Virus record (IMG/VR): IMGVR_UViG_3300028048_000080
Location: 32,001 to 96,000 of that record
Source of the DNA: a virus
Lineage: Duplodnaviria; Caudoviricetes
Strand: one strand, 5' to 3'
DNA: 64,000 bases
Every line of letters starts with the position of its first letter. Position 1 is the stretch's first letter. Positions 11,447-61,436 of the stretch are shown here, piece after piece. A program made the translations under genes and the position numbers. Under the pieces are notes generated by a model. The model was not told the origin of the DNA, made no database searches, and worked only from the letters and a program-made list of their open reading frames with translations.

Positions 11447-14400
11447 TTATGCTACGCCGATAGCGTGAGCTACCATACGATTAACTTGTAGCTGAGATAA
11501 ACTGTTGCCTACCGAAGTGCTCAGGTTAACGTTGACTGAACCAGTCTGAGGAGTCAGTCCGCTGGCCGCGTTGGAGATGGCATCCACCGCTGCCTGCTGT
11601 CCTTGGCCAGTTTGAGCGTTAATGTTGATAACGTAGCCTGAGGATGGGCCACCGCGCATTACGTTCAGATTGGAGTCGGATAATGACATCTGCTGCATGG
11701 CAATCTGATCCCCTTGGTCATTAGACATCTGCATCGCCTGAGTCTGAGCCGGAGTAGGAACATCGTGCTCTACCGAGGGGCCGGAAGCGTAGCCGGCAGT
11801 CATGAGCCCGGCAGCTATCCCGATTGCCGCGGCTATAGCTTTTCCTCCGGCTCCGCCGATGGGCGCAATATCGAGCATGCGTCCGAAAGATTTCCCGGCG
11901 CTTTCGGCCGTATCTTGCACTACGGCGCGTCGATAACGAGCGTTACGGTTCCTGGAGGCCGCTTCAGCCATCTGCTGTGCCGCATCTTCAGCGTTCTTAT
12001 GTATCGCCGTTGAAGTAGCGTTATCCAAGTCGTTAAAAGCTCCGCTGACTCCGGCTTCAGCATTCATATCATTTAATACCTGAGCTGTTTTGCCGAGTTG
12101 ACTATCTACCGAGTGACTGGAACGATAATTGAGTGGATCGGAGGCTTTTAAACCTGAGGCAGAAATACCCGTCATTAAAAGTTTTTGTTCTTTCTGGTCG
12201 ATGGTAGTGTTGCGCACGATATCACCAAAAAGCTTAGTGGTATTTTCGATAAGCTCATCGGTGTCGCCAAGCATGGCTGAACGCGGGCCAAATTCCTTTT
12301 TAGCTCTGTCCTTAAATACGCCGCCTACAAATGTTTGAAGAGCACTTGCCGCTTCTTCACGGTTTTCTCCCGTATACATTGCTTTTACGGCATCGCCCCA
12401 TACCTTCTGCAGTTCCTCAGCTCGTTTTAAGTCCGTTTCGCCGCGGGCGTTTTTACCGGTGAGAGCACCTTCCTGTAGAGCCATTAGACCGATAAGAACT
12501 TCGGCGTTTTCTTTACCCGTAAGCTTAGCTTGAGAATGAGCTATACGAGAGAATTCGAATAAGCTCTTATTCATAATACCGGCTGCTTTCTTAGAAGCCG
12601 CTTCGGTAAAACGTTCATCCATGCCCATCTGCCATTTACGATAATGCAGGGCTTCATCAAAGGCGGCGGCTTCTTCTTTGCCGTAGTTTTGAGCTACGAA
12701 GTTACCCATTCGCTGAACATAAAGAGCTTCATCTTTGGCCGCTCCTTTCTCAGCATCCCAGATTTTTTCAAAGTCTTCCGCGTGGCTGGTCTTATAATTT
12801 TCATTCAGCTGATCTAACAGGGCTTTATTGGTTTTTATTTCTTCCTCGGTGTATTTCTTTTCGAAGTTAACCAGTCGGTCACCATCGTAAGTATATTCCG
12901 TAAGGTTGCTAACACCGTAGGAATCATCGGCGATATGTTTCCCGTCTTTCCCCCAGTGAGATTCCTGAGGCTGGCCATACGGCGTAATATCTACCGCGTT
13001 GCGTACCATGCCCGCCTTAGCTTCTATGAAGTTATCATCGAGCAGTTTAACGTTCGTACCTTCCATGGCGCTTAAAGCACGATACGCGGCGAAGTCGACT
13101 TGGGCACGTACGGTGCGTCCATCAGCGTAAGTAATTTCGGCTTCACTCTTACGGATCATCGCGTTGATCTTATCGGAGTCATAGTCACCGTTCTGCTGGC
13201 GGAACGTCTTTAAGTTGGTACGGAATTCATCTCGACCGAGAATATCGCTAAAGTGCATATTGACGGCTTGAACCGGGTCACGAGAAACCAACGGATAACG
13301 CTGATCTACCGCGATAGTACCCTCTTTATCTAATACGCCGAGAGTCTTTTCTTTCAGCTGCTTAGCCAGTTTTTTATCGCCGCCAGCCATCTGCTCGAAC
13401 ATCTCGTCGGAATAGATAGCGTCTCTATGCTGCGTGCTGGCAAATAAGAAGCCGAGATCCATACCACTACCCTTTAAGACAGCATCTTTGGCGTTTCGGA
13501 TGTCGGCCAGTTCAGTGAATGATTTCCCGGAATCAAGGAATTTGGCATTGCCAAAAGCGCCATCTAATCCGTCGCCGAGGAACTGGAACCCCTGTGCCGT
13601 GCCGTACATGGTGCCATCCGAAATAACCGTAGTGGACGCCCGTTTGAACGTGCCGTTTTTATCGGTAGCTTCCTGCGCAACCATCGAACGGAGTTTCTCT
13701 GTCTCACGCATCAGTTCACTGCGCCGCTTCTCGTTAATATCTTGTCCGCCGCCGCGATGATTCTCATACTCGCTCGTGTACTGGTCATGCAGGCGCGTTA
13801 CGCGAGCTACCTGGCGCTGCAGCTCACTCTTACGAGCCGCGCCGGTGCTGTCTTCCTGCTGCAGCGCGGAGAATGGCAAGGCAATGGTGCGGTCACGATC
13901 CGACGTATATATCTGGCCATCTATTAAAGAGTTGGAATGCAAGTCAAGAACAATGGCCTGTCCATACAATGATTCAGCGAATTTATCATCAGTTTTATGG
14001 ATGCGAGCGTTGGTACGGAGGTCGTCGATAGACAAGCTGGTAAAGCCCAGGTTGTTCATTTCTTCCAACGAGTATTTATGACTGCGATTATATTCATGCG
14101 CGTTGGTCGAACTATTAGCTTCGATGAGGTCTAAGACTCTATTGGCGGTAGCATCTTGTACGTTGGACTTCTTCAGAGCATTAATGGCTCTCTGCGCAGT
14201 CTTTTTGTCGACCCCTTGCTCTTTGAGCCATGCCATGCCCTCTTCAGCGGTTTGGGCAGTTTCTCCGTTTTTCAGAATATGCTCAGCCCCTTGTACGCCT
14301 TTCCCCTCGTGAACGAAAGTGTCTTTCATAAAGTCATCGACGAGAGTCTGGTAGGCCAAGTCGCCATCTTTTTTAGACTTGGTAAAATCTTGGATAGCTC

Positions 14401-17400
14401 TTGAGAAGGCCGTGTCGCCGAACGCATCGGATATAGCCGTGGAAGATTTATCTATATAGTCCTTCGTATATACGGTGCTCTTCAAAGCATCAATAGTACG
14501 TTCATCTGCTTTGAAAGTGGATCTGTCTCCAGACTTACCGTAGTTATAGTTAGGCAGGACTCTAACCTGAGTGCGGGCGACTTCGTACATTACGTCGCCA
14601 TATTTGGTGGAAAGCTGGTGCATGGAATCGTGCCAGCCATCTTTGCCGCCAAAATATTTTTCCGTAACTTTGTTTAAGCCTTTAGTGCTAAGATGGCTGT
14701 CGTCAGTTACGAATTCTGCCCATTTTTTACCGTCAGTATCTTCATGGATTTTGATGCCTTTCATGGCACCGTTTTTCTCCATGATGTCCTTGGCTTCTTC
14801 TATGGAAAAACCCTTAAGATCGATTAATCCGTTAAACGTAGCTTCGAATGCGGAAGGGCCACCATGTTTTTTATGACCGGCCGCCGTATGACCGAACATG
14901 TCAATAGCTTCTTTTATGCCTATATCTCTTAGAGCTTCGTCCATAACGGTATTGGTACGGTAACGCTCTTCGAGTAAAGCGGAAGCAAACTTCGCCACAC
15001 CGCCAAAATTCTTGTTAATAATTTCTTCTATCTTGGCGTCGTTAAGAGCTAATAGTCGTTCACGCTTGGCTTTGTCTTTTTCCGCCATCGCTTTGCTGAG
15101 CGTCAGACCATGAACGAAAGCGGCAAATCCCGTACCTTTTACGGTTCCGGTATCAAACAATTCTTGAATAAAGTCGACGTGAATTTGCCGGCCGATAAGC
15201 TTTTCTGCGTTCAGCTCTTTTAATGTGGAAGCGATTTTCTTGTCGACTTCTTGTGAACCTTGGCCAAGCCCGTTCATCAAGACATGGCTCATCTGTTTTT
15301 CGCTATAGTCGGTCAGCTTAGTGTGGCCATCTATATCCAGGCTTTTAACGTAGAAGTCGTGAGAGAACGGCGAATTTTCCTTAGAGAAAAGCGCCCAGGC
15401 AGCCTGCTCGCGCTCAGCCCCCGTAAGAGATTTGTTAATATTCTGGTTGATATAATCGCTTACGGCCTCATCGGTCATTTCTTGACCGTTTTTAAAGATG
15501 CCTGACCTTAAAAGCCCTGTCTGCTTAGCCCTTACGGTTTCGTCTTTATACGTAGCGCTATTAGAAGCTTTAGTAAACAGTTCTTCTCCAGATTCTACGT
15601 ATACGCCTGCGTTCGATTCATAATGGGCCATACCGTCGGCGTCAAAAGTAATTTTGCCCTGAGCTTTCAATAGCTTTTCGAAATTACGGCTATTTTCGAT
15701 ATCGGAGCGGGCAATTTTGCCGAAAGCAACATGCTGTTCAAAATGCTCGGAGGTTAATCCGGCATCTGCGGCGCGGGCCGAAATGGCGCCCGATGCTTCA
15801 TCCGTAAAGATGGACATCATCTGACGATATTCGAAGGAGTCCTCGCCCAGCTTATCGGCAGCATATCGCATTAAGCGGCGCATACTTTCCGAATCAGCGG
15901 AGAGCTTATTGACCACCATGGTGTCGGCAACGTTATGGCCAAGCTTCTCGGAAATAGCATTCATATGCATGTGTTCCTGCATGGATTCGAATGCTGCTCC
16001 AAAACGTACGCCACGGCCTTCCATGATTTTTGCGGCGCGTTCTACATTGAACGGGATGGCCCTATCCATCTTAGTAGAAATATGGTTAAGGTCTTTGTCA
16101 TAGGACATTAATCCGCGATAACTGTCGGATAGAATATTTACCTGACCACGGGTGTCACCGGCATGGCTCAGGATATCCTGAAAAGCGCCTGTGGTGTCGC
16201 CTTCAAAGAGGTCGAGAAATTCTGCGCGCCCAGAGTCAATACTATCGACGATATACGGAGTCAAAATATGCAGTGTGCGCATATATGCTGCCGCGAGAGA
16301 ACTCGATGCATTCTTTAACGAATTGATTTCATCGACTCTTTTAGCGTGTTTAATACCTTCATCGCCGATTTTCTCCAAGTGCTCAATCATGATATCGGCA
16401 GCCTGCGTACCTTCGTCGCGAAGTTTTTGTATTATCTCTTTGCGGTCTTTTTGCCCTATCGTATGTAAAGTTTCGTCTATATTAATAACGTTAGCGAGAT
16501 TACGGTCTTGGCGGTCGCCAAAATAATCAGCTGAGTGCTGCCGATATCTCGCGCTTCGCATTCCGAAAATGCCTGATACTTCTTCGGCAAGATTACCGTT
16601 TTCCCTTCCGCGGTTGAACATGAAGTTCATTAGGTTCTCGCCATCTCTAGCGAGACGACCTTCTTCCGTGGTATAAATTAAAGCGTTGTGCTTGGAAGAA
16701 TAATAGAGGCCTACTTCGTCGCCGAACTCTTGTCCGTTAGCCAGGCGGCGCTTAAAAGTACCGTTGGAAAATACGTTGCGGTCAAGACCGATTACGGTGT
16801 AGTTATTAGCCCTTACATCCTGCGCCGTATTATAGACCCAGAACTGGCCATAATCTTTGTTATAGCCTATAGCGCCGCCGTGAGAATAAATGCCGCCAAT
16901 AATCTGTTCAAGCATTTCTTGGCTGGCGCCGTAGCGGGCACGCTGCATCTTGTAAATCTTACGCGCGTCTCTCTCACTATAACCAGCGGTGTCTACCAGC
17001 TTCTGGATAAACTCCTGCTCTTCTTTTTCGGTTCCTTGCGATACATCGAAGCCGTTATTGAAAACTATGTTTTTATTAATGTCAGAAGCGACGCCCTTGG
17101 CCCAAGCTAGAAAATCCTGCCCTTCCTTGGACTCTTTTTTCCAAACAGGTTTACCGTTTTCAGCAACAGGCTTGAAACTAGTAGCAACCTGAAAATCGAT
17201 GCCGGTAGCTTTGGAACTAACGGCGAGAATCTCATCGTCCGTCAAACCGCCGTTAACCAAGTTGTCGATAATATCGAACTGCTCGGTGGTAGACAATATG
17301 CCAGCCCATACATTACGTTTTCTTCTTTCACGCATTAAATGAGTGATCTTGCCGCCGGCGATAGCAGCAGTGTCGTTTTCAATATCGACGAGATATTCTT

Positions 17401-20329
17401 GCCCGCGACCATCGGCGATGTCATCCAGTTTTATAATCCCTTGATCCAAGAGACGCTGTTGAAAGTTAGCCAAGAGAGTAAGTTTTTCATCTTCTTGAGC
17501 GTGCTCTATTTCGTTAGCGGAACGTCCCATTTGCCGCATCAAAGATTTGACTACGCCGTAATCAGCGTTGATATCGATTGAAGCCATAGTGCTTCCGGAC
17601 AAAGATTTAACCCCGTAGAATCCTTCGATATCCACTTGGAACTTATTCAGTTCGCTGGCAACGCGGGGAAGGACTTGATAACCTGCGCCGGCCTTGCCGA
17701 CTTTTTCTATAGCGGCTTCTTCAAACATATCCCGAATTTCGTGATAAAAGAATTGAGCTCTGTCATCACTTAAGGATATGTCTTTGCCATAATGGTCACG
17801 CACGGCTGTTAAAGAGGCTTTGATTAACCCCTTGTTTGCGCGCGCCCATTTTTCGAGCGACGCCATATTCTCCATCGTGTCGGCATAAGCCTTACGTTGT
17901 CCCGTCTCTTTGTCGATATAGCCAAAGTAGTCCTGAAGAGAACCGTCATATTCATTGAATTTAACTTCTACCCCAGAAAGTTGCTTCTCTTCTATCTCTT
18001 TCGTCTTAGCTTTAACCTTATCACGAAATTCTTGGCGAAGATCTTCAATGGTGCTTTCGTCCGCCTGATTTTTTAAAAGCCCTTTTTCCTTCAGCTTTTC
18101 ATTAACATATTTATCCATGTCGTCGACATACTGCATGAGCCTTTCGTCACGACTGGCAATTTTATCACGAGCTTTGCGCCCGGCAGCATCATTAAACGCT
18201 CTATCAGATATTTCCTCTAAATCTTTGAGAGAAGCTGTCTTGTATTTACGGTTGCCCTCAGCGTCTATAACCACCGTGCTAAGCATGTCCCGATATTCTT
18301 GGGGAACATTTTCCATTAAGAATTCTTTGTCGTTCCCCGTTTTTTTAGCACCCGCTAAGGTGAATAAGTTATTAACGGTATCCATAAGATCCTGATACTT
18401 GCCGACCAGAACGATGTCTCGGTGTGCCGAAGCCAACTTAGATTTGGTGTGCGTAGTCCAGCGCATAGCAAACAAGTCTCCGCCAGCCATATTTTCATGA
18501 TTGGAAAGTATAGGCATTAGCGGGGAATCAGATTCTATCTTGGAAATACCTGAAAGCTCGTATAATCCGCGGCGATGTATACCGGGCGCCTGATAAAGTG
18601 CCCGTGCGCCTCCTTTTTCGCCGATAGCTACGCCGTCAGAAGACCACCACTGGTTAGTGTCTTTGTCGAAAGCGAAAGACATTACGCCATGCTTATGCGG
18701 ATCCCAGGTAGAATTATTAGCGAAGAAAAGCTGCGTACTGTTGCCCTTTAATTTAACGGCGTTTTTGGTAGCTTTTTTAGTGATAAACGAATTAGAGGAG
18801 TTAGGGTCATAGAATCCGCTGCCGAATACTACGCGCATAAGGTCGATGGCATCAGCTTCAGCGATATGGGTTTGACCGCTATGGATAGCTTCCGGCGAAA
18901 GACCTTTTTTAATAGCCGTCGCCGCCAGGATTGTCTGCTGAGTTTTAGGAGTCTCTTTCTGCGTTTTCATCCACTTCATGAGCGAATCCGTCTTGTCCTT
19001 GTCGCCCATGTAATTGCTCCAGAACGTATACGGGTCACCCATGTGTTCTTTAGGAAGAACCATTGCGTCGAGAGCGTTATTAAAATGCAGATGGTCGCCG
19101 CCAAGAATGCTACTCATTTCCTTACGGAATGCTTCAGTAGTTAAATCCTTATTATGCAGGAGATAATCGAGCTGAGGAATATCGAAGCGATTGCCATTAT
19201 AGCTTACTGCCGTAAGGTTATTGGCATAAATGTTACGGATGGCCGAGGCAAGCTCTTTTTCCCATCCGAACATTTCGTTGCCTACGCGGGTCTTTTCTTG
19301 GTACTCGCCGACTTCACGGAGAAGATTAGCGCCCTTAATCATTTCTTCTATCGTGCCGTTCGCGCCAGTTATATCCTTCTGCTCGGAGAAAGAAGAAAAT
19401 CTAACTACACCGTCTTTGGCTTCATCCCAGTTCACGTGCGTATATTTAGCGCCATGCAAAGCGAGACGGTTAAGGGTTACAAGTTCACCTTCTGCCATCT
19501 TTTCGCCACGAGAAAAACGGTCGATGAGGTTAAGCATATTCTTATGCTCTTTGCCGGACAAACCAATAATAGAACCGTAAGTTTTCTTAATATTGAAGTC
19601 GCCCGTCTTAAAATCGCCGAAGCCATCAGAGAAAGAAAACTCGGTAATACGCTGCATCTTATCGTATAACTTATCACCGTGACGACCGAAGGTTTCCAAG
19701 TCGAATGCTACGGCGCGCCCTTTTTGGGCGACGATGTTTTCGACGGCTTTTACTGATTCGTGTGGAGCGCCTTTAGTATAGGGGGTAGTTTTTTGATAGA
19801 TAAAATCGTATCCCGTGGTCTTTCGACTTTTCCCGTAAGTAAAAGCTTTGGAAAAAGTACGCACATTAAGACCCGAATACAATTTAACTAACTGCTCGTC
19901 AATTTTAGGAAATTCACTGAACTTCCTGACGGCTGCGTGTGGAACCACTATAGTAGCGCCTTGCGGTTGAGCTAAGTCAGCTATACGATACGCCAAGAAA
20001 GGAGCTATACTATGGTTTTCTTGCAGAGCAAGTTTTTTCCGCATTCGCTCCAACTCGCCACTGTGTTTTTCTCTCCACCAATTCCGATCTTGATTGTATA
20101 GCCAGACACTATTGTCTAAGTCTTTGATGATATCGGCATCGGCTTCGTCGCCTATATCCTTAAAAAATTTTAAGCTTTCTTGTTGTTCGTGAAAAAGATC
20201 TCTTTCGATGTGTTGTCTAGCATGTTTTCGCTCGTCCATCTTTTTTTGGAACGATTCCGAATTAGTAAATTTATTTAATTCAGCCTGCATACGAGCCTGC
20301 CGTCTTGCGTTGTCGCTGAAAAATGCCAT
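11447..20329 (-). CDS. Giant (2960 aa) putative virion RNA polymerase (two-barrel type) with N-terminal DEDDh 3'-5' exonuclease domain
   Basis: QRYP followed 38 aa later by NGDYDSD (beta-prime-like RxP..DxDxD spacing). Exonuclease motifs AFDLET, YNGNRFD, HIAEAD. Hydrophobic C-terminal helix. Confidence 0.7.
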   Translation of the reverse strand: MAFFSDNARRQARMQAELNKFTNSESFQKKMDERKHARQHIERDLFHEQQESLKFFKDIGDEADADIIKDLDNSVWLYNQDRNWWREKHSGELERMRKKLALQENHSIAPFLAYRIADLAQPQGATIVVPHAAVRKFSEFPKIDEQLVKLYSGLNVRTFSKAFTYGKSRKTTGYDFIYQKTTPYTKGAPHESVKAVENIVAQKGRAVAFDLETFGRHGDKLYDKMQRITEFSFSDGFGDFKTGDFNIKKTYGSIIGLSGKEHKNMLNLIDRFSRGEKMAEGELVTLNRLALHGAKYTHVNWDEAKDGVVRFSSFSEQKDITGANGTIEEMIKGANLLREVGEYQEKTRVGNEMFGWEKELASAIRNIYANNLTAVSYNGNRFDIPQLDYLLHNKDLTTEAFRKEMSSILGGDHLHFNNALDAMVLPKEHMGDPYTFWSNYMGDKDKTDSLMKWMKTQKETPKTQQTILAATAIKKGLSPEAIHSGQTHIAEADAIDLMRVVFGSGFYDPNSSNSFITKKATKNAVKLKGNSTQLFFANNSTWDPHKHGVMSFAFDKDTNQWWSSDGVAIGEKGGARALYQAPGIHRRGLYELSGISKIESDSPLMPILSNHENMAGGDLFAMRWTTHTKSKLASAHRDIVLVGKYQDLMDTVNNLFTLAGAKKTGNDKEFLMENVPQEYRDMLSTVVIDAEGNRKYKTASLKDLEEISDRAFNDAAGRKARDKIASRDERLMQYVDDMDKYVNEKLKEKGLLKNQADESTIEDLRQEFRDKVKAKTKEIEEKQLSGVEVKFNEYDGSLQDYFGYIDKETGQRKAYADTMENMASLEKWARANKGLIKASLTAVRDHYGKDISLSDDRAQFFYHEIRDMFEEAAIEKVGKAGAGYQVLPRVASELNKFQVDIEGFYGVKSLSGSTMASIDINADYGVVKSLMRQMGRSANEIEHAQEDEKLTLLANFQQRLLDQGIIKLDDIADGRGQEYLVDIENDTAAIAGGKITHLMRERRKRNVWAGILSTTEQFDIIDNLVNGGLTDDEILAVSSKATGIDFQVATSFKPVAENGKPVWKKESKEGQDFLAWAKGVASDINKNIVFNNGFDVSQGTEKEEQEFIQKLVDTAGYSERDARKIYKMQRARYGASQEMLEQIIGGIYSHGGAIGYNKDYGQFWVYNTAQDVRANNYTVIGLDRNVFSNGTFKRRLANGQEFGDEVGLYYSSKHNALIYTTEEGRLARDGENLMNFMFNRGRENGNLAEEVSGIFGMRSARYRQHSADYFGDRQDRNLANVINIDETLHTIGQKDRKEIIQKLRDEGTQAADIMIEHLEKIGDEGIKHAKRVDEINSLKNASSSLAAAYMRTLHILTPYIVDSIDSGRAEFLDLFEGDTTGAFQDILSHAGDTRGQVNILSDSYRGLMSYDKDLNHISTKMDRAIPFNVERAAKIMEGRGVRFGAAFESMQEHMHMNAISEKLGHNVADTMVVNKLSADSESMRRLMRYAADKLGEDSFEYRQMMSIFTDEASGAISARAADAGLTSEHFEQHVAFGKIARSDIENSRNFEKLLKAQGKITFDADGMAHYESNAGVYVESGEELFTKASNSATYKDETVRAKQTGLLRSGIFKNGQEMTDEAVSDYINQNINKSLTGAEREQAAWALFSKENSPFSHDFYVKSLDIDGHTKLTDYSEKQMSHVLMNGLGQGSQEVDKKIASTLKELNAEKLIGRQIHVDFIQELFDTGTVKGTGFAAFVHGLTLSKAMAEKDKAKRERLLALNDAKIEEIINKNFGGVAKFASALLEERYRTNTVMDEALRDIGIKEAIDMFGHTAAGHKKHGGPSAFEATFNGLIDLKGFSIEEAKDIMEKNGAMKGIKIHEDTDGKKWAEFVTDDSHLSTKGLNKVTEKYFGGKDGWHDSMHQLSTKYGDVMYEVARTQVRVLPNYNYGKSGDRSTFKADERTIDALKSTVYTKDYIDKSSTAISDAFGDTAFSRAIQDFTKSKKDGDLAYQTLVDDFMKDTFVHEGKGVQGAEHILKNGETAQTAEEGMAWLKEQGVDKKTAQRAINALKKSNVQDATANRVLDLIEANSSTNAHEYNRSHKYSLEEMNNLGFTSLSIDDLRTNARIHKTDDKFAESLYGQAIVLDLHSNSLIDGQIYTSDRDRTIALPFSALQQEDSTGAARKSELQRQVARVTRLHDQYTSEYENHRGGGQDINEKRRSELMRETEKLRSMVAQEATDKNGTFKRASTTVISDGTMYGTAQGFQFLGDGLDGAFGNAKFLDSGKSFTELADIRNAKDAVLKGSGMDLGFLFASTQHRDAIYSDEMFEQMAGGDKKLAKQLKEKTLGVLDKEGTIAVDQRYPLVSRDPVQAVNMHFSDILGRDEFRTNLKTFRQQNGDYDSDKINAMIRKSEAEITYADGRTVRAQVDFAAYRALSAMEGTNVKLLDDNFIEAKAGMVRNAVDITPYGQPQESHWGKDGKHIADDSYGVSNLTEYTYDGDRLVNFEKKYTEEEIKTNKALLDQLNENYKTSHAEDFEKIWDAEKGAAKDEALYVQRMGNFVAQNYGKEEAAAFDEALHYRKWQMGMDERFTEAASKKAAGIMNKSLFEFSRIAHSQAKLTGKENAEVLIGLMALQEGALTGKNARGETDLKRAEELQKVWGDAVKAMYTGENREEAASALQTFVGGVFKDRAKKEFGPRSAMLGDTDELIENTTKLFGDIVRNTTIDQKEQKLLMTGISASGLKASDPLNYRSSHSVDSQLGKTAQVLNDMNAEAGVSGAFNDLDNATSTAIHKNAEDAAQQMAEAASRNRNARYRRAVVQDTAESAGKSFGRMLDIAPIGGAGGKAIAAAIGIAAGLMTAGYASGPSVEHDVPTPAQTQAMQMSNDQGDQIAMQQMSLSDSNLNVMRGGPSSGYVININAQTGQGQQAAVDAISNAASGLTPQTGSVNVNLSTSVGNSLSQLQVNRMVAHAIGVA

Positions 20330-20419: not shown

Positions 20420-20444
20420 AAAAACCCTGGATTATTCCAGGGTT
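20420..20444 (-). terminator. Probable intrinsic terminator after the 2195-aa gene
   Basis: AACCCTGG-aataat-CCAGGGTT hairpin followed by Ts on the minus strand. Confidence 0.65.
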
Positions 20445-23400
20445 AATAAGAGCTCTGCATAGATAGAGAGTTTTCGACCATCTTCTGTTCGTGACGCATA
20501 CCCATCATCTGTTTAACAGCGGCCCATATGGTAGTACCGCCGCCGGTAGGTCCGGCTTCCACGGAAATGTCGACACCTTTAAGTCCGGCGCCCTTGAGCA
20601 CATCTTCCATGTAGTTTTTTACGGCGGCTTCATTATGGTCACGGCCGCCACCTCGGAAGTTTACCGTAGGAGCGTTGATTACTTTTTCATCTCTGACTTG
20701 AGAATCGTAGTAGCCAAAGTCCGAAAGATTCATCGCTTCGTTTTCGATGGTCTTAACCTCAATATTATTCAAATCATACTGAGGAGCCCATCCTGCCCAG
20801 TTGGCTACGGGCAGTTCATGCTTAGCGAAAAATGTTTCATTATCTTCCTGCTCGTCCACCGTCTGTCCCCAGGCAAGCTGCAGAGCTTTACGTAGGAACG
20901 GTGAAACCTTATTGAGAATAACGTTACGTTTATCTGGATTGACTTCTTTAACAAATTCCATGAAGTATTCACGATCATTCGTCGGAAGGGCGGTAACTAT
21001 TTGTGACCATGAAGAATTCTCGTCCAAAGCATACATGGTTGCGTCAGCCGCTTTCTTATAAAGAAGCGCGGTGCGCGTCCATTCGCCGCCCGGAAGAATC
21101 ATAGTGTCTCCTTCGAGATCGGCTATCTTAGCATTGAGCTTCTTCATCAGCTCGTCGCGCTGAGTGCTTGGACGGGAATTCTGTTGAAGTTTCTTCTTCA
21201 TGCTCTTGTACTTGCTAAGAGCCTTCTGGTTCTTCTCCGCTTTCTCTTGCTGAAGCTCTATGACGTCTTCGAGATCGACGTCTTCTTCTTCCTTGGCTTT
21301 TTCAGCGGCGGCATGGAATAATCCTTCGTACTTCAGATAGGTTAGTCTATCGAAGTAATCTTGCATCTCCCATTTTTCTTTAGTGCGTTCAGGAATCCAG
21401 TCACCGTTAGGGTTTTTCTTTCCGTGGTAGAGCATACCAGCCGCCGCGCCAATAGCGCCGTATATCGCACGGGTCTTGCCGTTCTTTTCGAAGAAACGCC
21501 CTACTTCCTGCCCGATATTGGCCATAGACAACGCTTCATCGACATAGCTGTTACCGCCGGTTGCGGCATGAGCTAAAGTCATCGCGGTACTGCCGTAGCG
21601 CGACCAATTCATACGGGTTCTTTCATCCAGCCCCATGGCATTACCGAGAACGTTACCGATGAAAGCGCCGCGATCGCCAAAGATAAACGCGTATGCGCCG
21701 GCATGCTTCATCCACGGAGAAGCACCTTCAAAATCGCGGGTAAAACGATAAACATTGCCGAGCATGCCAGTAAAAGCGCTGCGGTCATGTGCTGCACGTT
21801 CTAAAGCGGGCATCAGGATGGAATTAATAGGATGTTCCCATGACTGATATGGCGTACCGTATACCTGCTCTGCATCATACGACTCAAGAGGAGAACGTAC
21901 TCGTAAGAACTGGTCGGAAAGCCATGGGATATCCATATGGGCGATATACTCTGAACCCCATGCTACCATCTTCTGCACGGGGCCGTAATTAGCCAACGTT
22001 GCCGCCGCCGACGTATCACCTTTACGTATAGACGCATCGCCATTCTTAATCATTTCTTGGCCGATATTCATACCGTCAGCGAATACGGCGGCATTTAACG
22101 TGCCTTGAGCATCTTTGTTTTTACGAGCGTACTCATCTTCGTCTACCGCTACCGTTACAGTTTCGCCTACGTGAATATAACGATTCAAGACTTCTTGCGC
22201 GCTTTCCTGTGCATTGGCTTTTAAGTGAGCGCCGGCTATCTTGAATATGCGGTTGCCCGAACGGAACTTGCCGTACCCCATGACTTCTGATACGACTACC
22301 TGTTGGTATTCCAGCCCTTTACCTACTACCTTATAATCGTAGAAATCATGTTTTTTACCTTGCTGATTTACTCGGTCACGAATCTCGTCCATCTCGTCGA
22401 TAAGTGCCGGGTCAGTAATGGTCTTTTTGGCTATGTCGCGCCATAGACGATATTCGGGAGAAAACGGCGCGATATCAGCCAGTATTTTCATACGGTCAAA
22501 AGCGCCGTATTCGCCGTACTGGTCAGGATGCAACTCATTAAGTGATTCATATCCTTTACCCGGGAGACGCATTTCGCCTTTTTGAATTTGCGTGAAGGGA
22601 TCGCCGAATCTGAAACGTTCAGGGAGCCAATCAGGCATGGTATTCATAAGTGGATTATTTCTTGGCCCACGGCGATAATCGGGAACGAAACGACGAGCTA
22701 TTTCTGCTGCTGCGCCGCCCAAACCACCGAGATTTTCATCCCAGAAGGTACGGGAGAACGAAGTCATATCCTGCCCCGTAGCGATACGCTCCATATCATC
22801 GACGCCGAATCCGGTAGCGGCACCGAGAGCGTAACCGTAGATACCTGAAATCAAACGCCAGGATACGGCGGCATTTTCTACTACGCCCGCACCTTTAGTC
22901 TGGTTTATCAGCTGAGTTACGGCATCCGGGTCACTCAAGAAATCCATTGCTTGAGACGGGCGATAAGACTTCAGCTTGTCGCCGTGAATCATCGTCTCGT
23001 CTTCATCTACTCCGTAAGGCGAAACGGTTTTACCTGACTCAGCTTTACGGGAAGCAGTTACGGAAGCGAGCATTCTTCTGGGATTTACTTTAGAAGCAAG
23101 AGCGGAGAGTTCTCCCCACGCATGTGTGCTATGCATTGGATCAATGCCTCTTGCGACATCTTCCAACATATTGCCATGGACGAGCCCGTCAACTACGTCG
23201 TTGCGCGGCAGCATATCCGTTAACTCATCGTACAAAGTCTCTCCGACCAGCTCGTTATACAAAAGCTTATCTTCCGCAGAAATCTTTACATGCTGTTTTT
23301 GCGTGGTTATGACGGTACCATTGCCTTTGTCATCCGTTGCGATGACCGACCCCTGTTTCGGAGGAGGACCACCGAAGAGTTTGTAATCTATCGCTTCGAA

Positions 23401-26400
23401 GAAACCTATATGGGTAGAGCCGATATCATCGAGAACCTTTTCGGTCTTAACTCCTTTACCTAGCCCACCACCGCCAGTCGGCATCTTATCTAATGGATAT
23501 ACGCCGTATACGCCAGGGTCAACGTCGCCGTACTGTCCACTCTTAAATTGGAACGAAGCGATGCTGGTATCTGATGTCGGTGCGTCAAACATATCCAGGG
23601 TTACGGGATCAAAATCCATGCCGTTTACCTGAATATAGTTACGGTGGCCTATATCGCGAGCTTTCTGCTTAATGTTCTGCGTGATACCATACAGCAATGC
23701 TTTAGGGTCTACGCCGTTAATATTGCGATAGTCGAACCCAAGGAAAGTGTTGAGACTTTTTTGAGGTTTGATTAATTCGCCTATAGTAGGATTTAATACC
23801 GCGCCCCATGGAGTACCGTCGGCAAACATATGACCGGTCAGCTCATAAGGTCTGTCCTCTTTATGCTTCTCTTCTAACCAATACGGATCTAATATTCCGG
23901 CTATGGGAGAAAATGGATTGGTAGGCGTCGGCAAAAGGCTGTGCGACCATTTATCCCAGTAGCCATCGTAAAGAGCCTTGTCTTTCCAATCGGATTGGAT
24001 ACGACGAGCAAACGTAGGCTCCCAATAGGATATCTCTGCGCCGCGGGCTTCGTTTACGCCGCCGAATGTCCACCATGCACCTTTGCGTACGGGAGTGTAT
24101 CCTTTCTGATACCATTCACGCCGTTCATCGGCGTTCATGAAGTCATCGTGATCGCCCCAGTATTGCATTATAGGGTTAATAGCCTTTTCGCCTTTGAGCC
24201 AATCGGTTAAACCGATGGTATCCAAAACTTTGCGGCCGGCAATATCGAATTCCGCTACGCCTTGAGCCATAGCTCCAGACATGGACATACCCGTTATCTC
24301 TTCGGATGTATCATCCATCCATTCAAGATAAGTAGCTCCTACGGCCACGGGGAGAATGCGTTTGGTAAACATCGCCGTGAGCATATCCGTAGCACTGCCC
24401 ATGTTATCCTTGGAGAAACCTAATCCAACTTTATTCATTTCGTCGGACAAACGGGATAAGAAGAAATATGGAACGTACGTAGCGTTGGTAACATCACCCA
24501 TATTGCCGCGGCCGGCAGTAAACTGTTTTCCGAACTGCTTAGCCGTATCCATGAAACGGCCTTCGGTTACGCTGGTAAGAAGGTCTGTTACATGTACCGT
24601 TTTACGTTGAGTAACGAACTGGTTATACGGCAGCGGATTAGCTATCTCATCTGCCTGCATATATGGCGTGTCGAAGAGATGTTCATTTTCGGCGGCCATA
24701 TTAGCCAGGTCTTCCTGAAATTGCTTATCCATTTGTTCGTTGCTGCTGGATAATGCGCTGCTGACAGATCTTAACGCTTTCCATTCATCTTCTCTGGTGA
24801 AAGAGTTTTCTTCAGACATTCTTAGCGCATCTTCAAGATAAGTCAGATCATTCAATCGATGAGCGTTTATGCGTTCCGCGTCTTCCAGCCCAGCCGCGTT
24901 TATTTTGTCCAACGCTTTGGCATAATCAGGTTTTGAAGAACCATCGCGCGCCATCTGAGCGAAAGCTTCGCGACTAAACAAGTTGCGTAAGTACTCTTTT
25001 GCATCTTCCGTATAATTGCCGGGTTCGGTATTGGGTAAATCAAGGACGCTGGTAGAAAGATTTAATTTTTCTTTGGCTACTTTCTGAACGATATGGGAAT
25101 TGAGACTGTGGATATTGCCACGCGCCTTACGGGCCAGATCATTCAATTCGCCGATGGCATAAGTGTCGTCTCCGCTCTGCATAAGGAGCTCAAGCATAGA
25201 TTCGTAATCGTCTTTGACCAAATACTCCAGCATGGTGCGCGCAGGAGTTTTACCTTCGTTAGCCAAGAGCCGTTCAGCACTTAACGAATCAATGCCGTAA
25301 GTATGATTGCGAAGATTATCGCGGATAACGTCTACGCGATCGTGATAGCTATCAAGCCATTCATCAGAAACCAGTTTTTTATCATATTTTTGAAGTCCAA
25401 GAATGTCGGCGTCTTCTATAGTAGGATTGAGCATATCGCGGGCAGCCGTGGGGAAATAATCCAGATTGCTCCCCTTATTAGCCCAGGCATTGTATTTTTC
25501 AGCGAATTTAAAGCCGCTGAATTCATCGCGTCCTTGTCCTATATCAAAAAAACTAGTAAACCAGTTGCCACCTTTTTTGTAGCGTACGTTGCCGGACATT
25601 TGCTGATGCATATGCTTGCGTGGGCCGAATCTGCCGGAAACGAATTCTGTCTCGATACCCTGCATTTCTTTGGCGAGTTCGATCTTATCGTCGCCGACTC
25701 TATACCAGTCGCCCATAACGTAGAGCATATTGCTGTCAATTACGTTAGTCTTTCTATTATCGGCGGCGTTAGATAATGCCGCGAGGCCAGGATCTATAGA
25801 ACCTTTCGCCGCAAAATGAATATTGGGCATTACGCGGTCGAGAGATGCCTCGCGCATCTTAAAGATTTTGCCGGGAAGCGTATTCGCGAAACTGGATACC
25901 AGTTCATCCATAAACTTACGACTATCGTGGAGGCTATACATGTTGCCTCTCGCATCCATGCGCAGCACGTCAGCGTCAGGCGTTAAATCCAGGAATCTCT
26001 GCTCCTTAGACTCTTTCATGTAGCGGTCGTAAGCTTTGGTGCCCTTCTTGGCGTTCTTATTTAACCCCGCCTGCTTATCCAGTTCTTCGAAGTACAGGCG
26101 AGCATCTTCGATATCGTCAAGCGGGCTGTAGTTCGTGCCTCGATTTTCGCCATTTACCTGGTAATGGTTGACAGAAGTTTTATCTTTATTAGCCAGAATT
26201 TCACGGTTGCTTACGCCGCGGCCACCGGTAACCCTATCCTTTATGCTTAGATTTCTAACGGTACCGAAGCGTTTTTCCATTCGGTCGAGGTTATATGCAG
26301 ATTCGTTAACCTGTTCGGCGAGCTTCTGGCTGAAATCGTCAACATATTTTTTACGCGCTTGCTTGTTGTCAACATAACGCATATAGCGAAGCATTGTATC

Positions 26401-27867: not shown

Positions 27868-27870
27868 GTA

Positions 27871-32381: not shown

Positions 32382-32409
32382 TACCATCCGTAGAATATGT
32401 AATTAGTAA

Positions 32410-55466: not shown

Positions 55467-55473
55467 TATTACC
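55467..55473 (-). promoter_or_regulatory. Candidate late promoter motif GGTAATA at the head of the late cluster
   Basis: 45 bp upstream of the first minus-strand gene; recurs elsewhere. Confidence 0.5.
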
Positions 55474-55721
55474 GCCGCGTATGCGGCAATAAAATATGCC
55501 CCTCATTGCCATTTTGTAGATTACTTTATATAGGCGATAAAGGGCATAAAATATATAATTTGGTGCGAATTGTCTGACAATTTCCTATAGGGCGTGAAAA
55601 ATGTAAAAAATTTTTCGGGGTACCAGGTGTAAATGGGGAAAAAGCGGGAGGCAGAAATCGAGCCCCCACCCCCAGTTTCCCGGCACAAAGGTGACCGGGA
55701 CATGATGAGGAGGAAAACATC

Positions 55722-57138: not shown

Positions 57139-59181
57139 ATGAAAAAGAATCGTTATTTAACCGACGTCAACGCTGTTGTGGAGATGGCTCGCGCCCATAA
57201 GCGCGTAGTCATTTCTAATCAGCAGGATTTTCAGGCGGTTACTCACCGTCTGACATCAAAGGCTGGTAAAATGTTCAGCGTTATGTCGCTGAATTATAAC
57301 CAGTCTACCGGTTGGTTCTCGCCGATGGCGGTGAAAGTTCCGGTTTCACTGGAAACGGCGGAGCTGGAAGGTACGGTGCGCGCCGAAAACGCGCACATCA
57401 ATAGCATCACTATGATGCCTATTGAACGATTCTCTCGGGCATACATTAATGTATGCTGCGGCGACAATCCGGACCTTTTAGACTTGCTGTTGCTCGACGG
57501 CAAGATTTATTGCGTCCTGAAAGTGGGCGCCAATGGGAAGAACGTGAAAGAATCGTTCTTCGTTCAGAGCGAAAAGGAAGGCGTTGCTCTGAATATCACC
57601 AATGGCAAGGAATGCCCGTTCACCGCCTTCGATAGGGAAGACGTACACGTACATGTGTACGGGCTTCTCGGGGTGTCTTCTCCCGGCCAGCAGAAACAGG
57701 GGGAAATCTCGCTTTATTGCGAGAATCTGGATGGTTTTGATGCCGTAGACCATCTGGACAACATGACTCACGGCATGTATCGGCTTATCGCCAAGCATTA
57801 TGCTGGGCAGCATGATAAGCTGAAAACCCTGGCACAGATTTCGACCCGTATCAGCCAGTTTAAAGCTGGCATGGTTCGGACGAAACCTATCCAGGGTATT
57901 GCCATCTCTATGTTCAAAGTCAAGGATGTCCTTGACAATGAATGGATGGATGGTCTGCAGCTGTTCTCGGCCGAAGGTGTTGCCCGCGCTTTCAGCGACG
58001 ATCAGTTTACGGTACTTCCGAGTGCCGTGGACGGAGCTGCCGCACAAGCTAGACCTCTTATCGTGAACAAAGGTTTGGGTTTGTGCATGCCGACTCAGTG
58101 CATCTTAACCATCTTAAGAGCGCTGGGGTGTGAGTTTGAATTCCTTGCTCAGGATGAACTCACGGATGAACAGTTTAAGAGCTACCAAAAGGCAGTTCTT
58201 AAAAAGTCCGGCGACTACAAGGGCAAAACGCTGGTTATTCTTCCGACTTTCAAGAAGGAAGATGGCAGCATTATGAGCGACGAAGAGAAACTCATGCATA
58301 TCGATGCGTGGGTGGATCTGAACGTACACAAAACTGTGTGCGATATTCGCCGCCCATTCACGGGATTCAATGTCATGGGCTTTGACCATGGCAAGAAAAC
58401 CGTGGAGGAGGAAGCCAATACCTCCAATCAGTTATTGGCATCTGCGCTGTACGCTGATACTCCGCGTACTCTTGAGTATATGCTCAATTGCACGAAGAAA
58501 GAGGCAGACAGCATTATGGCTAATGCCGTCCGCATGGATGGCCGGCGCCTGACAGCTAAAGACCTCTTAGGGGATTTGGCTATGGCTTCGCAGACAGCTT
58601 ATCCAGAATTTGCCGTGCGCCATTGGGCGCCGTACTTCCAGGATAATCTGAATAAGGCCCTGGAAGGATTCGGTACGCGTCTTGAGAAACTGTCAGTTTC
58701 CACTGACGGTATCTATCTTAAGATTATTCCGGATCTTAGCCATTTCTTCGGTATCAACCTTCTCCAGTACGATGCCGAAGAGGGGGTATGCGAAGTGTTA
58801 GCACCGCAGCTTTCGAAAGAAGGCAAACGGCGCGCAATCGCTATCAAATACCCGAAGATGGCGACGGACGAATTCGCCAAGATTATTCCGGTTGCTCCGG
58901 AAGACTTGGTAGAACGTGCTCGCTACCATCTGGAGAATGGGGAAATCACCGAGGAACAGTTCGATGTACTGCAGCATCTGTTCTATATGCTTCATGACGG
59001 TATCATCATGGTGCCGGCTATCGAAGAATTGAAGAATATGCTTGCGGGCATGGACTTCGATGGTGATGCGCTTGTTGCTTATTGTGATGAGACTTTGGTC
59101 GACATCATTTGGGCAATCAAACCCGTGGCAACTACTATTATGAAGGATAAAGACTTCGCCGTCTTTCAAGCTTCAAATTAA
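57139..59181 (+). CDS. YonO/QDE-1-like two-barrel RNA polymerase, N-terminal catalytic subunit
   Basis: MDGLQLFS, AQARP..NKG, KYP and LAGMDFDGD (DFDGD at 59053-59067). Confidence 0.8.
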   Translation: MKKNRYLTDVNAVVEMARAHKRVVISNQQDFQAVTHRLTSKAGKMFSVMSLNYNQSTGWFSPMAVKVPVSLETAELEGTVRAENAHINSITMMPIERFSRAYINVCCGDNPDLLDLLLLDGKIYCVLKVGANGKNVKESFFVQSEKEGVALNITNGKECPFTAFDREDVHVHVYGLLGVSSPGQQKQGEISLYCENLDGFDAVDHLDNMTHGMYRLIAKHYAGQHDKLKTLAQISTRISQFKAGMVRTKPIQGIAISMFKVKDVLDNEWMDGLQLFSAEGVARAFSDDQFTVLPSAVDGAAAQARPLIVNKGLGLCMPTQCILTILRALGCEFEFLAQDELTDEQFKSYQKAVLKKSGDYKGKTLVILPTFKKEDGSIMSDEEKLMHIDAWVDLNVHKTVCDIRRPFTGFNVMGFDHGKKTVEEEANTSNQLLASALYADTPRTLEYMLNCTKKEADSIMANAVRMDGRRLTAKDLLGDLAMASQTAYPEFAVRHWAPYFQDNLNKALEGFGTRLEKLSVSTDGIYLKIIPDLSHFFGINLLQYDAEEGVCEVLAPQLSKEGKRRAIAIKYPKMATDEFAKIIPVAPEDLVERARYHLENGEITEEQFDVLQHLFYMLHDGIIMVPAIEELKNMLAGMDFDGDALVAYCDETLVDIIWAIKPVATTIMKDKDFAVFQASN

Positions 59182-59249: not shown

Positions 59250-61436
59250 ATGGAAAAGAAAGTTATCAATGCCCTGAATGCTATCGTTACCGGCAAAAAC
59301 TACCCCATCGATGAACGGGTAGTTTGGACGTATTTCTATACGTACCAGAAAAAACAGATTGACCCGGTTGGGATGGTTACGAAAGATTTCTGGCCATTTC
59401 AAGCCATTATGTACGCTGTTGATATGTACAAGATGGTGCAGAGCTGGGAAGAGTCCCCGGCAAAGACGGCTTGGCTCAAAGAGTTGAGCATGTCTTTGGA
59501 CATCGCTTTTAAGTGGCTCAGAAATGAGCTGCTCGTCGGTACGGAATACACTGACAAGAAAAGCAATTACAAAGTATTCCGCGCACCCATCTCCGAGAAA
59601 GAGATGACCGGCGCTCCGAAAGTGAGCGCCATCTGCGTACGCGCTGGCCGCAAGGCCATTAACCGTGCGCGCAAAATGTTCTTTGCGCCGCTGAGCCAGC
59701 AGGAAATGGCTAAGAGCCATGAGCTTAGCGAAGAAGAACTCCTGACCTTGGATAATGTCATGGCATTCTGCAAGGTCATGGAAAAAGTGGGTCGTATGAG
59801 CCAGGAAGGCACTATCGACTCCACCAAGAGCGGTGACGCTCCGAAAATCCTGCAGTACGTCGTCAAGACGGAAGCAGGGAAGAACGGACTCCGTGAGGTA
59901 ACCCTTATGGAGGCTCTTAGCCGTGTCAGCTTGCTTAGCCGTAAATCCGAGAAGTTTGGCGTACAGCTGAACTTCGAAGCAGGCGAAGTCGAGGTTAATC
60001 ATAATAAACGTATCTCTTATCAGGAGAAGAAACGTTACGTGATTGCCGATATGTTGGATAAAATCCGCATTAACGGCCTCGACAACGCTATTCCGGCCGA
60101 TGTATCGGAGAAGGTATTCGCCGTAAAGCAGGCACTCTCCGATGAGCAGATGGCGATCTGCAGCCGTCTTGCTGAACAAGGTGTATACGCAGACGCTATT
60201 CGTGTTCTTATGAACATTTATCGCAACCTGCGTGATACCCAGAAAGCAGATATGCGTCAGGCAATCAAGGATGCCGGCAAGAATGAGGAAGCTCAGAAAG
60301 CCGGTATTGCCGTAGCCAAGGAACAGACCAAGGTAGCGTACAATGCGCTGTCCAATACGGTGCGTTCCCTGGTGAAAGGTATGAGCCATGAACAGCTCAT
60401 TCAGCTCGTACTTGGAGTAACGTTCAAGTATATGGGCAAGGACGCAAAACGTCCGAGCTCTTTCGCCGGGATTATCCTGGCCGAGGAGTTCTTCGAATAC
60501 ATCATGAGCTTGTATTCGGAAAACGAGGAATTCGCACTTACCCGCGATGAACTCGCTGCGTGCGACGCAGAGGACGGAGAAGTGGTAGAGTTTGTCGGCG
60601 GCGTAGTACCTGGTCGTGCTATCTTCTCTCAGGAGAGAAACGCTATCCCCGATGGCGTGTACACCGTTCGTAAGAATGGCAAACATGCTTGGGTAGAGGC
60701 CAGTGTACGTGATCGTATCGAAGCTCGTTTAAACGATGCTTATAATCCGGAAGAACTCATCTTCCAGACTGGTACGATTGCCACCGAGAAAGAAGCCGAT
60801 GCTCTGCTGGATGCTATTAACGGCGCCAACGAGGTAGTTCTCGCTTCTCGGATGCATAATCCGAATGGTGGCAAAGATCTCTTCGACGTAGTTTTAGCTG
60901 ACGGCAAAGCTGTCGCTCATTATCAGACCAAGGTGAAGAACATGGTCAAGAACGATAAGGGCGAATTGGTAGCCAACAAGGTCAACGGCAAAGACGATTA
61001 TACGATTTCGCAGGCTCTTCGTAAGTTCTACTCCGGTAAAACTGGCGAGGTTGCGTTCGCGCATAAGCTGTCTTTCGGCGAAGGCAATAAGACTCAGTAT
61101 GCCGTCATCGTAGTACTGAAAGGTACTAAGCAGATGCGCGCCAATGCTGTAGTTAAAGCTGCCGCCGAAGCCGTTGTTAGCGCCGATTTCGGAGTAGAGA
61201 AGAAAGCTGCTCCTAAAGCGTCCGTTAATAGCCGTCTTGCCGCTCTTAAGGCAAAGGCTGCGGACAGTGAAAAGGAAGAAGCTCCTGCTCAGCCCGAAGA
61301 AGCAGAAGAAGCTCCTCAGCTTACCTTAATGCAGCGCCTGATGGCGAAACGCAACAAGGTAGCCGAGAAGCCCGTTACTGATAAGAAGCCCAGCCGACTC
61401 GCTCGCCTGCGCAAAGCTGGTGCTGACATTCAGTAA
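59250..61436 (+). CDS. Probable second (C-terminal) subunit of the split YonO-like RNA polymerase
   Basis: PVGMVT and SQEGTIDSTKSG resemble the G.IS and AVD..KTG motifs that follow DxDGD in this family; own AGGAGG RBS. Confidence 0.6.
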   Translation: MEKKVINALNAIVTGKNYPIDERVVWTYFYTYQKKQIDPVGMVTKDFWPFQAIMYAVDMYKMVQSWEESPAKTAWLKELSMSLDIAFKWLRNELLVGTEYTDKKSNYKVFRAPISEKEMTGAPKVSAICVRAGRKAINRARKMFFAPLSQQEMAKSHELSEEELLTLDNVMAFCKVMEKVGRMSQEGTIDSTKSGDAPKILQYVVKTEAGKNGLREVTLMEALSRVSLLSRKSEKFGVQLNFEAGEVEVNHNKRISYQEKKRYVIADMLDKIRINGLDNAIPADVSEKVFAVKQALSDEQMAICSRLAEQGVYADAIRVLMNIYRNLRDTQKADMRQAIKDAGKNEEAQKAGIAVAKEQTKVAYNALSNTVRSLVKGMSHEQLIQLVLGVTFKYMGKDAKRPSSFAGIILAEEFFEYIMSLYSENEEFALTRDELAACDAEDGEVVEFVGGVVPGRAIFSQERNAIPDGVYTVRKNGKHAWVEASVRDRIEARLNDAYNPEELIFQTGTIATEKEADALLDAINGANEVVLASRMHNPNGGKDLFDVVLADGKAVAHYQTKVKNMVKNDKGELVANKVNGKDDYTISQALRKFYSGKTGEVAFAHKLSFGEGNKTQYAVIVVLKGTKQMRANAVVKAAAEAVVSADFGVEKKAAPKASVNSRLAALKAKAADSEKEEAPAQPEEAEEAPQLTLMQRLMAKRNKVAEKPVTDKKPSRLARLRKAGADIQ

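Follow-up and report, generated by a model that had tools for sequence, protein, structure and literature searches.

A split two-barrel RNA polymerase and a candidate virion polymerase-exonuclease in an uncultured jumbo myovirus

The IMG/VR virus contig IMGVR_UViG_3300028048_000080 is a single sequence of 124,580 bp without terminal repeats, of which bases 32001–96000 (64,000 nucleotides, referred to as the window) were analyzed. On the plus strand of the window, two adjacent genes, ORF1 and ORF2, are predicted to encode the two halves of an RNA polymerase (RNAP) of the QDE-1/YonO type, while a giant minus-strand gene, ORF B, encodes a candidate virion polymerase that carries an exonuclease-like domain. 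The split RNAP is solidly established from its predicted fold and its relatives, a promoter-like motif (GGTAAT) that precedes many minus-strand genes is real, the giant RNAP-exonuclease is a well-motivated candidate, and the temporal programme that would connect them is proposed here as a model. The two-barrel RNAP has undergone an ancient, natural break after its catalytic barrel, resulting in two polypeptides that, in this model, would assemble into the non-virion RNAP of the phage. This enzyme would read the structural genes of the minus strand, starting at compact (G)GTAAT-N~8-TAG sites located behind intrinsic terminators, in the way that YonO reads the late genes of SPbeta. ORF B, which occupies the tape-measure slot, would probably be a virion protein that is ejected together with the DNA and contains a second, very divergent two-barrel RNAP (R-x-P ... 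GDxDxD) with a DEDDh exonuclease. It would be the first to transcribe the plus-strand block with the split RNAP genes, a role that gp96 has in phage P23-45. As a whole, this is the best explanation we can offer, and its probability falls just short of an even chance.

The evidence is strongest for the split enzyme, which is encoded by the first large genes of the plus-strand block:

57139..59181, plus strand: ORF1 of the split non-virion RNAP, 680 amino acids (AlphaFold2 fold, Foldseek, VIA, ESM Atlas, 251 relatives)
59053..59067, plus strand: DFDGD codons, predicted metal-binding triad of ORF1 (GMDFDGD at residue 639)
59250..61436, plus strand: ORF2 of the split RNAP, 728 amino acids, equal to the C-terminal half of fused relatives (profile matches)

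The AlphaFold2 (AF2) model of ORF1, based on a 53-sequence alignment, has a pLDDT of 91.7 and a pTM of 0.87. It contains an N-terminal domain and both double-psi beta-barrels (DPBBs), in the order DPBB-B and then DPBB-A. The aspartates D639, D641 and D643 are invariant across the 53 sequences, and the DFDGD motif at 639–643 aligns with DYDGD of QDE-1. The protein ends approximately 38 residues past this triad, at the equivalent of about residue 1040 of QDE-1. A Foldseek search with the model returned QDE-1 (E 3e-11), plant RDR2, gp66 of phi14:2, a crAss-like phage (E 4.6e-5), and Thermus phage gp64. With VIA-align, residues 41–670 of the model were superposed on residues 487–1036 of QDE-1 (2j7n_A) with a Z of 21.1 and an rmsd of 3.9 Å over 430 residues. 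The Z was 18.9 for RDR2, 11.4 for the P74-26/P32 non-virion RNAPs and around 9 for the catalytic barrel of Rpb1 and of the cyanobacterial and plastid beta-prime subunits. In the ESM Atlas, 29 of 30 hits were viral clusters labelled RdRP / PF05183 (score 0.96). Moreover, a profile of 13 close homologues retrieved 251 proteins among 1.84 billion representatives, 58 of them at an E of 1e-30 or better. ORF1 has no match in Pfam, PHROG or PDB-sequence searches, nor by tblastn in 50,697 phage records. The Pfam family PF05183 (RdRP) matches neither ORF1 nor any other part of the contig, and is matched weakly by 6 of the 53 ORF1 relatives (best E 5.9e-4). Because this Pfam family is not matched, the membership of ORF1 and ORF2 in the QDE-1/RdRP/YonO assemblage rests on the fold. 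Judged by its model, ORF1 is a QDE-1/YonO-type two-barrel RNAP, and the split YonO-like RNAP called in the initial annotation thus holds structurally for this half.

For ORF2, there is no match in Pfam or PHROG and a profile search of the PDB found nothing. Its profile does match residues ~780–1400 of single-chain proteins of 1200–1500 amino acids, of which the first 650–750 residues match ORF1. An example is a fused relative of 1252 amino acids, with residues 75–649 matching ORF1 and residues 776–1171 matching the ORF2 profile. That the first large plus-strand genes encode a split RNAP was part of the initial annotation as well, and is borne out by fold for ORF1 and by homology to C-terminal halves for ORF2. 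The order of an ORF1-type gene followed by an ORF2-type gene is kept in eight related loci, including relatives that are only 26–28% identical. As the same adjacent gene pair recurs in all of these, the split is real, old and conserved; more distant relatives (1617 and 1707 amino acids) carry a fused RNAP. From the fused relatives, we infer that ORF1 and ORF2 physically assemble into one enzyme. A sequencing or assembly artefact was considered as the source of the split and rejected, given the presence of the pair in eight independent loci. Other break points exist in the same RNAP family: some proteins of ~860–890 amino acids (P0089 and P0096) have their start shortly ahead of the catalytic barrel and comprise the C-terminal half, and one relative (L009) has an N-terminal RNAP gene of 1069 amino acids. 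The family has been split on more than one occasion.

Between the left end of the contig and window position 55422, the genes are on the minus strand and form a cluster that spans 87 kb within the contig, instead of the 55 kb first attributed to it. Within this cluster, GGTAAT sites are located at:

55468..55473, minus strand: GGTAAT site before the first gene of the minus-strand cluster (intergenic, coding strand)
11362, 20400, 28279 and 32380, coding strand: further GGTAAT sites in the window (intergenic)

On the coding strand of the cluster, 9 of the 29 GGTAAT copies are intergenic, while intergenic sequence makes up 2.4% of the cluster (binomial P 1.7e-8). None of the 23 antisense copies lies in intergenic sequence. 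The motif is present in 9 of the 15 intergenic gaps of at least 40 bp. The sites show downstream similarity, giving an extended consensus GGTAAT-A-N-ATAT..TAG, and often stand directly after a hairpin with a T-run; an upstream partner (−35) was not found. Upstream of the ORF B orthologues, the site persists in relatives with identities of 65%, 43%, 28% and 23%, and the hub gene is preceded by the variants AGTAAT and CGTAAT. GGTAAT is a conserved, compact and strand-specific signal. The initial annotation had proposed promoter sites of the form GGTAATA; the intergenic, coding-strand and conserved GGTAAT core stands, whereas the bare heptamer is not enriched genome-wide (10 and 11 copies vs. 9.7 expected per strand). 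Following the example of YonO, the RNAP for the late structural operon of SPbeta (PMC5467207), these sites may be read by the split RNAP. One site has distinct surroundings: at window positions 32380–32440, a strong hairpin with a T-run comes immediately after GGTAAT and precedes a gene for a tail-tube paralogue. This site may act as a kind of attenuator instead of a plain promoter.

The split enzyme need not have a late role, since in P23-45 the non-virion RNAP reads early genes and a part of the middle ones while the late genes use the host RNAP (PMC10770324). With a similar division in the present phage, the split RNAP would serve the early and middle plus-strand genes, and the GGTAAT sites would fall to the host RNAP, redirected to them by a factor of the phage for which the gene may lie in the missing half of the genome. 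The low completeness of the contig, approximately 54% by CheckV, leaves room for such a factor. A possible promoter for the split enzyme would be TYTATGTCY, of which three intergenic plus-strand copies stand around the RNAP genes (56814, 57102 and 61484), a clustering that is suggestive of an early or middle promoter. However, by our own estimate of ~2 per strand for the genome, three copies are near chance expectation. The GGTAAT sites are compact, have no −35 partner and are conserved among phages that are unlikely to share a host, which argues against a host enzyme, and the SPbeta precedent of YonO points in the same direction. Altogether, we consider this division of labor quite improbable.

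The second candidate polymerase, ORF B, lies in the tail module. Its relevant parts are:

11447..20329, minus strand: ORF B, 2960 amino acids, tail-module protein, candidate virion exonuclease-RNAP (motifs, tape-measure slot)
13139..13393, minus strand: candidate DPBB-A (beta-prime-like) segment of ORF B (RYP at 13292–13300, DYDSD at 13172–13186)
15170..15847, minus strand: candidate DPBB-B (beta-like) region of ORF B, residues 1495–1720 (conservation; invariant E1511, K1671 and K1678)
18800..19747, minus strand: candidate DEDDh 3′–5′ exonuclease domain of ORF B, residues 195–510 (motifs, weak PF13482)

An IMG/VR profile search identified homologues of 2888–3168 amino acids in six other large contigs, down to 17–19% identity; close homologues are few. 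Invariant in 10 homologues are G2337-T, R2344-x-P2346 and G2381-D-x-D-x-D2386, with a spacing of 35–38 between R-x-P and GDxDxD (in ORF B itself, RYP lies 38 residues upstream of DYDSD). The triad occurs as DYDSD, DFDSD, DSDSD or DSDGD, always with all three aspartates, and the segment around it is the best conserved of the entire protein. In a six-frame scan of the contig, the Pfam domain RNA_pol_Rpb1_2 (PF00623) gave a single, weak match, namely to ORF B residues 2313–2397 (13.1 bits, E 0.0065). It is also the sole Pfam match of an isolated 251-residue segment of ORF B (E 0.17) and matches 2 of 8 homologues. With an 8-sequence ORF B profile, phiKZ gp55 and archaeal A′ were matched at their active-site barrels, in register but below threshold (E 1.8–2.8). 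In the candidate DPBB-B region, AF2 places beta strands at a pLDDT of 55–79 within an overall poor model (pLDDT 45), and no fold match was found for this region. From these motifs, the presence of a two-barrel polymerase in ORF B is predicted with a probability slightly better than even. An EF-hand-type calcium loop was considered for DYDSD and rejected, as position 6 is not a glycine and position 12 is not acidic in any homologue.

Besides the candidate barrels, ORF B has motifs of a nuclease. D210-x-E212, N378-x3-F-D383 and H488-x4-D493, in the order ExoI, ExoII and ExoIII, are invariant in seven ORF B homologues. PF13482 (RNase_H_2) matches ORF B below threshold (E 0.0038, 17.7 bits vs. a cut-off of 22) and matches 2 of 7 members. 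A PDB profile search with the exonuclease domain found nothing. On the strength of its motifs, ORF B probably contains a DEDDh nuclease.

A location of ORF B in the virion is suggested by its neighbors:

20443..27030, minus strand: ORF C, 2195 amino acids, homologue of virion protein gp145 of phage 0305phi8-36 (blastp)
2831..11320, minus strand: ORF A, 2829 amino acids, homologue of a baseplate hub / cell-wall hydrolase (phrog_20474, E 7e-203)

ORF C matches gp145 of 0305phi8-36 with an E of 9e-67 and CDS0026 of a Moorella phage with an E of 3e-94 (blastp), and the tblastn matches of ORF A are ORF147 of 0305phi8-36 (gp147, hub / cell-wall hydrolase) and Moorella phage MTATph1. As ORF A and ORF C are homologous to gp147 and gp145 and to the MTATph1 equivalents, the phage is placed by sequence homology as a contractile-tailed, distant relative of the Bacillus jumbo myovirus 0305phi8-36. 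Flanked by these two genes, ORF B occupies the slot of gp146 in 0305phi8-36, a protein of 2537 amino acids that is annotated as a hypothetical tape measure and, according to its database record, is a virion protein by mass spectrometry. The gp146 protein has no similarity to ORF B and no DxDxD. The C-terminus of ORF B has a conserved Gly/Ala-rich hydrophobic stretch. This stretch and the gp146 slot make it plausible that ORF B is a virion protein that is ejected.

The gaps around ORF B have some further features. An identical 25-nt perfect hairpin with arms AAAAAGTATC / GATACTTTTT is found at 11387–11411 and 20351–20375, in both gaps flanking the gene. One copy is part of the ORF B leader, downstream of its GGTAAT site, and the other stands upstream of the following GGTAAT site. 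In a relative of 28% identity (L021), the ORF B orthologue likewise has GAAAAAGT...ACTTTTTC hairpins of a similar kind on its two sides. In a relative with a 65% identical ORF B (L012, 18856–20824), the orthologues of ORF B and ORF A are separated by two opposite-strand genes, one for a ParA-like ATPase and one of 372 residues, an insertion that is absent from the window.

A number of results weigh against a polymerase in ORF B. Firstly, the matches to phiKZ gp55 and archaeal A′ vanish when a 10-sequence ORF B profile is used, and PF00623 gave no match in five relatives. Secondly, hhalign of ORF B profiles against the split-RNAP family yielded nothing (probability below 1%), and an ESM Atlas search with residues 1350–2650 gave no usable match. 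Thirdly, the AF2 model of residues 1440–2480, built from a five-sequence alignment without the distant homologues, has a pLDDT of 45 and a pTM of 0.29, and leaves the DxDxD segment unstructured. Because this model failed, fold searches with it are uninformative: Foldseek returned gyrase-type noise only, and a VIA-wide search gave Z values of at most 6.7. Chains of RNAP clamp domains took ranks 1, 2 and 18 in this search, with 3qqc_A and 8w9z_C at the top (Z 6.7); they map ~170 residues upstream of the triad and are on a par with generic helical hairpins, which makes them a hint at most. Other searches were negative as well. Whole-protein scans of ORF B gave no Pfam or PHROG match, PDB sequence searches with single sequences and with the profiles A1, A2, A8 and A12 gave nothing significant, IMG/VR scans with the profiles A1 and A4 gave no loci, and the profiles A2 and A9 (A9 being the 10-sequence ORF B profile) did not match in 0305phi8-36 or MTATph1. 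Of the giant RNAP-exonuclease in the initial annotation, the motifs are confirmed, being invariant down to 17–19% identity; the RNAP and exonuclease folds are not confirmed, with an AF2 model of pLDDT 45 and profile matches below threshold. The candidate gains from the depth of this conservation, from the presence of the split enzyme on the same contigs and from the tape-measure slot that ORF B occupies.

These results bear on the question which enzyme starts the infection, as does an element in the divergent region between the two blocks:

55565..55613, plus strand: conserved element before the plus-strand block, with palindrome AATTGTCTGACAATT and sigma70-like CTGACA-17-AAAAAT (conservation, promoter scan)

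The 28-nt core of this element (55565–55592) contains the palindrome AATTGTCTGACAATT, followed by TGAAAAATG-AAAAAATTT, and is present in a single copy. A relative with an RNAP of only 55% protein identity has this core unchanged. The sigma70-like match of the promoter scan, at 55574–55602, falls in this conserved stretch. The element could be a host-RNAP promoter, an operator or a site used by an injected enzyme. As a promoter, it could permit the host RNAP to start the infection, which again speaks against a virion polymerase, and it keeps alive a model with one phage polymerase only. According to this model, host RNAP would start at the sigma70-like site and make the split RNAP, which would in turn read the structural cluster. 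ORF B would then be no polymerase but a protein of the tape-measure slot that is ejected and has a nuclease domain as well as a conserved, acidic loop for metal binding, in agreement with the lack of a confident RNAP fold or a significant profile match. In addition, 0305phi8-36 has a YonO-like RNAP (PMC7824862) while its slot protein gp146 lacks both DxDxD and similarity to ORF B, from which it follows that the lineage can do without a virion RNAP. On the other hand, this model does not account for the invariance of R-x-P-(35–38)-GDxDxD across 10 very divergent homologues, nor for the fact that the Pfam domain Rpb1_2 falls exactly there. Moreover, sigma70-like matches in the divergent region occur at chance frequency (8 found vs. 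7.4 expected), and ORF B and the RNAP are always found together on large contigs. The one-polymerase model is somewhat doubtful, and ranks behind the model in which ORF B starts the plus-strand block.

Co-occurrence of the two RNAP loci across relatives, which the initial annotation had named as a check on its scheme, was indeed found: the seven contigs that are 100 kb or longer and encode an ORF B homologue all contain an ORF1-family gene, split or fused. One complete contig of 227 kb with a distant fused RNAP is without ORF B. As the seven contigs form one clade, their co-occurrence is not independent evidence of functional coupling, and it may reflect shared descent only, which is a further point against reading the two loci as one system. 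A canonical beta-prime was not detected in the five relatives scanned. Separate beta and beta-prime genes that match the Rpb1/Rpb2 Pfam domains, as in phiKZ and AR9, were likewise not detected, with PF00623 matching in none of these five relatives and only weakly, in ORF B, in the contig itself.

The two-RNAP combination was regarded as unrecognized in the initial annotation, which overstates its novelty. In P23-45, the tape-measure-fused virion two-barrel RNAP gp96 transcribes the pre-early genes, including the gene for the non-virion two-barrel RNAP gp64 (PMC10770324). YonO-like single-chain RNAPs have also been noted in the jumbo phages 0305phi8-36, which is contractile-tailed, and c-st (PMC7824862). 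Given these examples, the scheme and most of its parts have precedents.

P23-45 is similar to the present phage in several respects. Both have a giant tail-lumen-type protein with a DxDxD two-barrel (a candidate here), and their first early genes also code for a second RNAP, two-barrel and non-virion. In both, the giant protein resembles known RNAPs only around DxDxD, and ORF1 structurally matches the gp64 homologues, as described above. There are differences as well. P23-45 is a siphovirus while the present phage is a myovirus. Its virion RNAP is N-terminal, whereas the candidate in ORF B is situated mid-protein (residues ~1500–2400), behind the DEDDh-like domain, and its motif is DFDGD, compared to DYDSD/DFDSD/DSDSD in the ORF B family. 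The non-virion enzyme of the present phage is QDE-1-like, twice as large and encoded by two genes. Lastly, ORF B, of which the activity is a prediction from sequence, has no mutual similarity with the split RNAP that hhalign could detect.

The YonO-like RNAPs of SPbeta, 0305phi8-36 and c-st are, like the split enzyme, phage two-barrel RNAPs of the RdRP/YonO assemblage, and 0305phi8-36 additionally has the tail-module homologues in common with the present phage. The split enzyme differs from them in its division over two genes and its total of ~1400 amino acids, and its family profile has no match in the 0305phi8-36 record. QDE-1 and RDR2 (PDB 2j7n, 7y7s and 7w82) provide the best structural match, covering both barrels and the catalytic loop within the 430 aligned residues. 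However, the identity is 11–13%, and they are cellular RNA-silencing enzymes made as one chain, while ORF1 stops at the break point and the remainder is a separate gene. The gp66 protein of phi14:2, a crAss-like phage (PDB 6vr4), has the traits proposed for ORF B: it is a giant two-barrel RNAP that is packaged in the virion, its DxDxD is non-canonical and its gene stands among those for the tail. It matches ORF1 (Z 8.0) and not ORF B, belongs to a podovirus and has no exonuclease. With phiKZ, AR9 and N4, the present phage would share the logic of two-stage, host-independent transcription, and with the former group also the split of beta-prime-like subunits, but canonical beta or beta-prime genes such as those of phiKZ and AR9 are not found here. 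The virion RNAP of N4 is T7-like and not two-barrel. Finally, the break between ORF1 and ORF2 after the catalytic barrel resembles the one between rpoC1 and rpoC2 in cyanobacteria.

Compared to these systems, the new elements are the lineage, i.e., uncultured jumbo myoviruses, with its conserved two-gene split of a QDE-1-like enzyme, and a candidate virion enzyme inside a 3000-residue protein of the tape-measure slot, fused to a DEDDh-type domain. For a virion RNAP fused to a DEDDh-type domain, no precedent was found in the literature searched. By the split, a two-barrel RNAP of one chain was divided long ago, and in a conserved manner, just past the catalytic barrel. This mirrors the subunit splits of cellular RNAPs and makes the enzyme a tractable two-piece model for the assembly of two-barrel RNAPs. 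The compact GGTAAT sites provide a ready set of candidate promoters for its specificity. If both enzymes are real, they would constitute a second, independent case of the P23-45 strategy, in which a tail-delivered two-barrel RNAP switches on a second phage RNAP. The strategy would then not be a Thermus curiosity, but would operate in contractile-tailed jumbo phages as well, with an exonuclease that no known RNAP has.

A bolder, and unlikely, possibility is that ORF B unites, by covalent linkage, a two-barrel nucleotide polymerase delivered by the virion with an active DEDDh 3′–5′ exonuclease. It would then be either the first RNAP with a built-in exonuclease or a PolD-like two-barrel DNA polymerase in a phage tail, and would represent a new family of ~3000-residue ejected enzymes in a clade of uncultured jumbo myoviruses. 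Possible roles of the exonuclease would include proofreading, trimming of primers or transcripts, and degradation of host nucleic acids at the entry site.

Besides the tail-tube paralogues and the three giant genes A, B and C, the minus-strand cluster contains:

49199–50965, minus-strand cluster: large terminase (TerL)
44683–46803, minus-strand cluster: portal
40392–41648, minus-strand cluster: major capsid protein
33177–36119, minus-strand cluster: tail sheath, 980 amino acids

The cluster with the tail sheath faces a block of plus-strand genes that starts at 55722, in line with the contractile-tail layout of the initial annotation. The plus-strand genes continue to the end of the contig and are mostly small; a primase-like protein, a nucleotidyltransferase and an ATPase are among their products. 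No tRNA genes were found in the contig. Related metagenomic contigs span 204–265 kb, so that the contig, and with it the sequence analyzed here, probably represents about half of a jumbo myovirus genome of roughly 250 kb. That the transcription programme is self-contained, as was claimed initially, was not confirmed from this half of a genome.

Three paralogous genes (28295–28972, 30750–32330 and 32410–33096) all match phrog_9206, which is labelled "major head protein." This label is probably misleading here, since the matching gene of 0305phi8-36 (ORF141) is noted as a tail tube paralogue. At the other side of the window, the genome region at 96.3–100.5 kb (window position 64312 onward, mostly beyond the window) comprises ~4 kb with very few ORFs and long gaps, in which CGTAGAA and TACTACCTAC-type words recur. 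Two plus-strand copies of GGTAATA precede the gene at genome position 96644. This region may be an origin, a regulatory region or a region of RNA genes.

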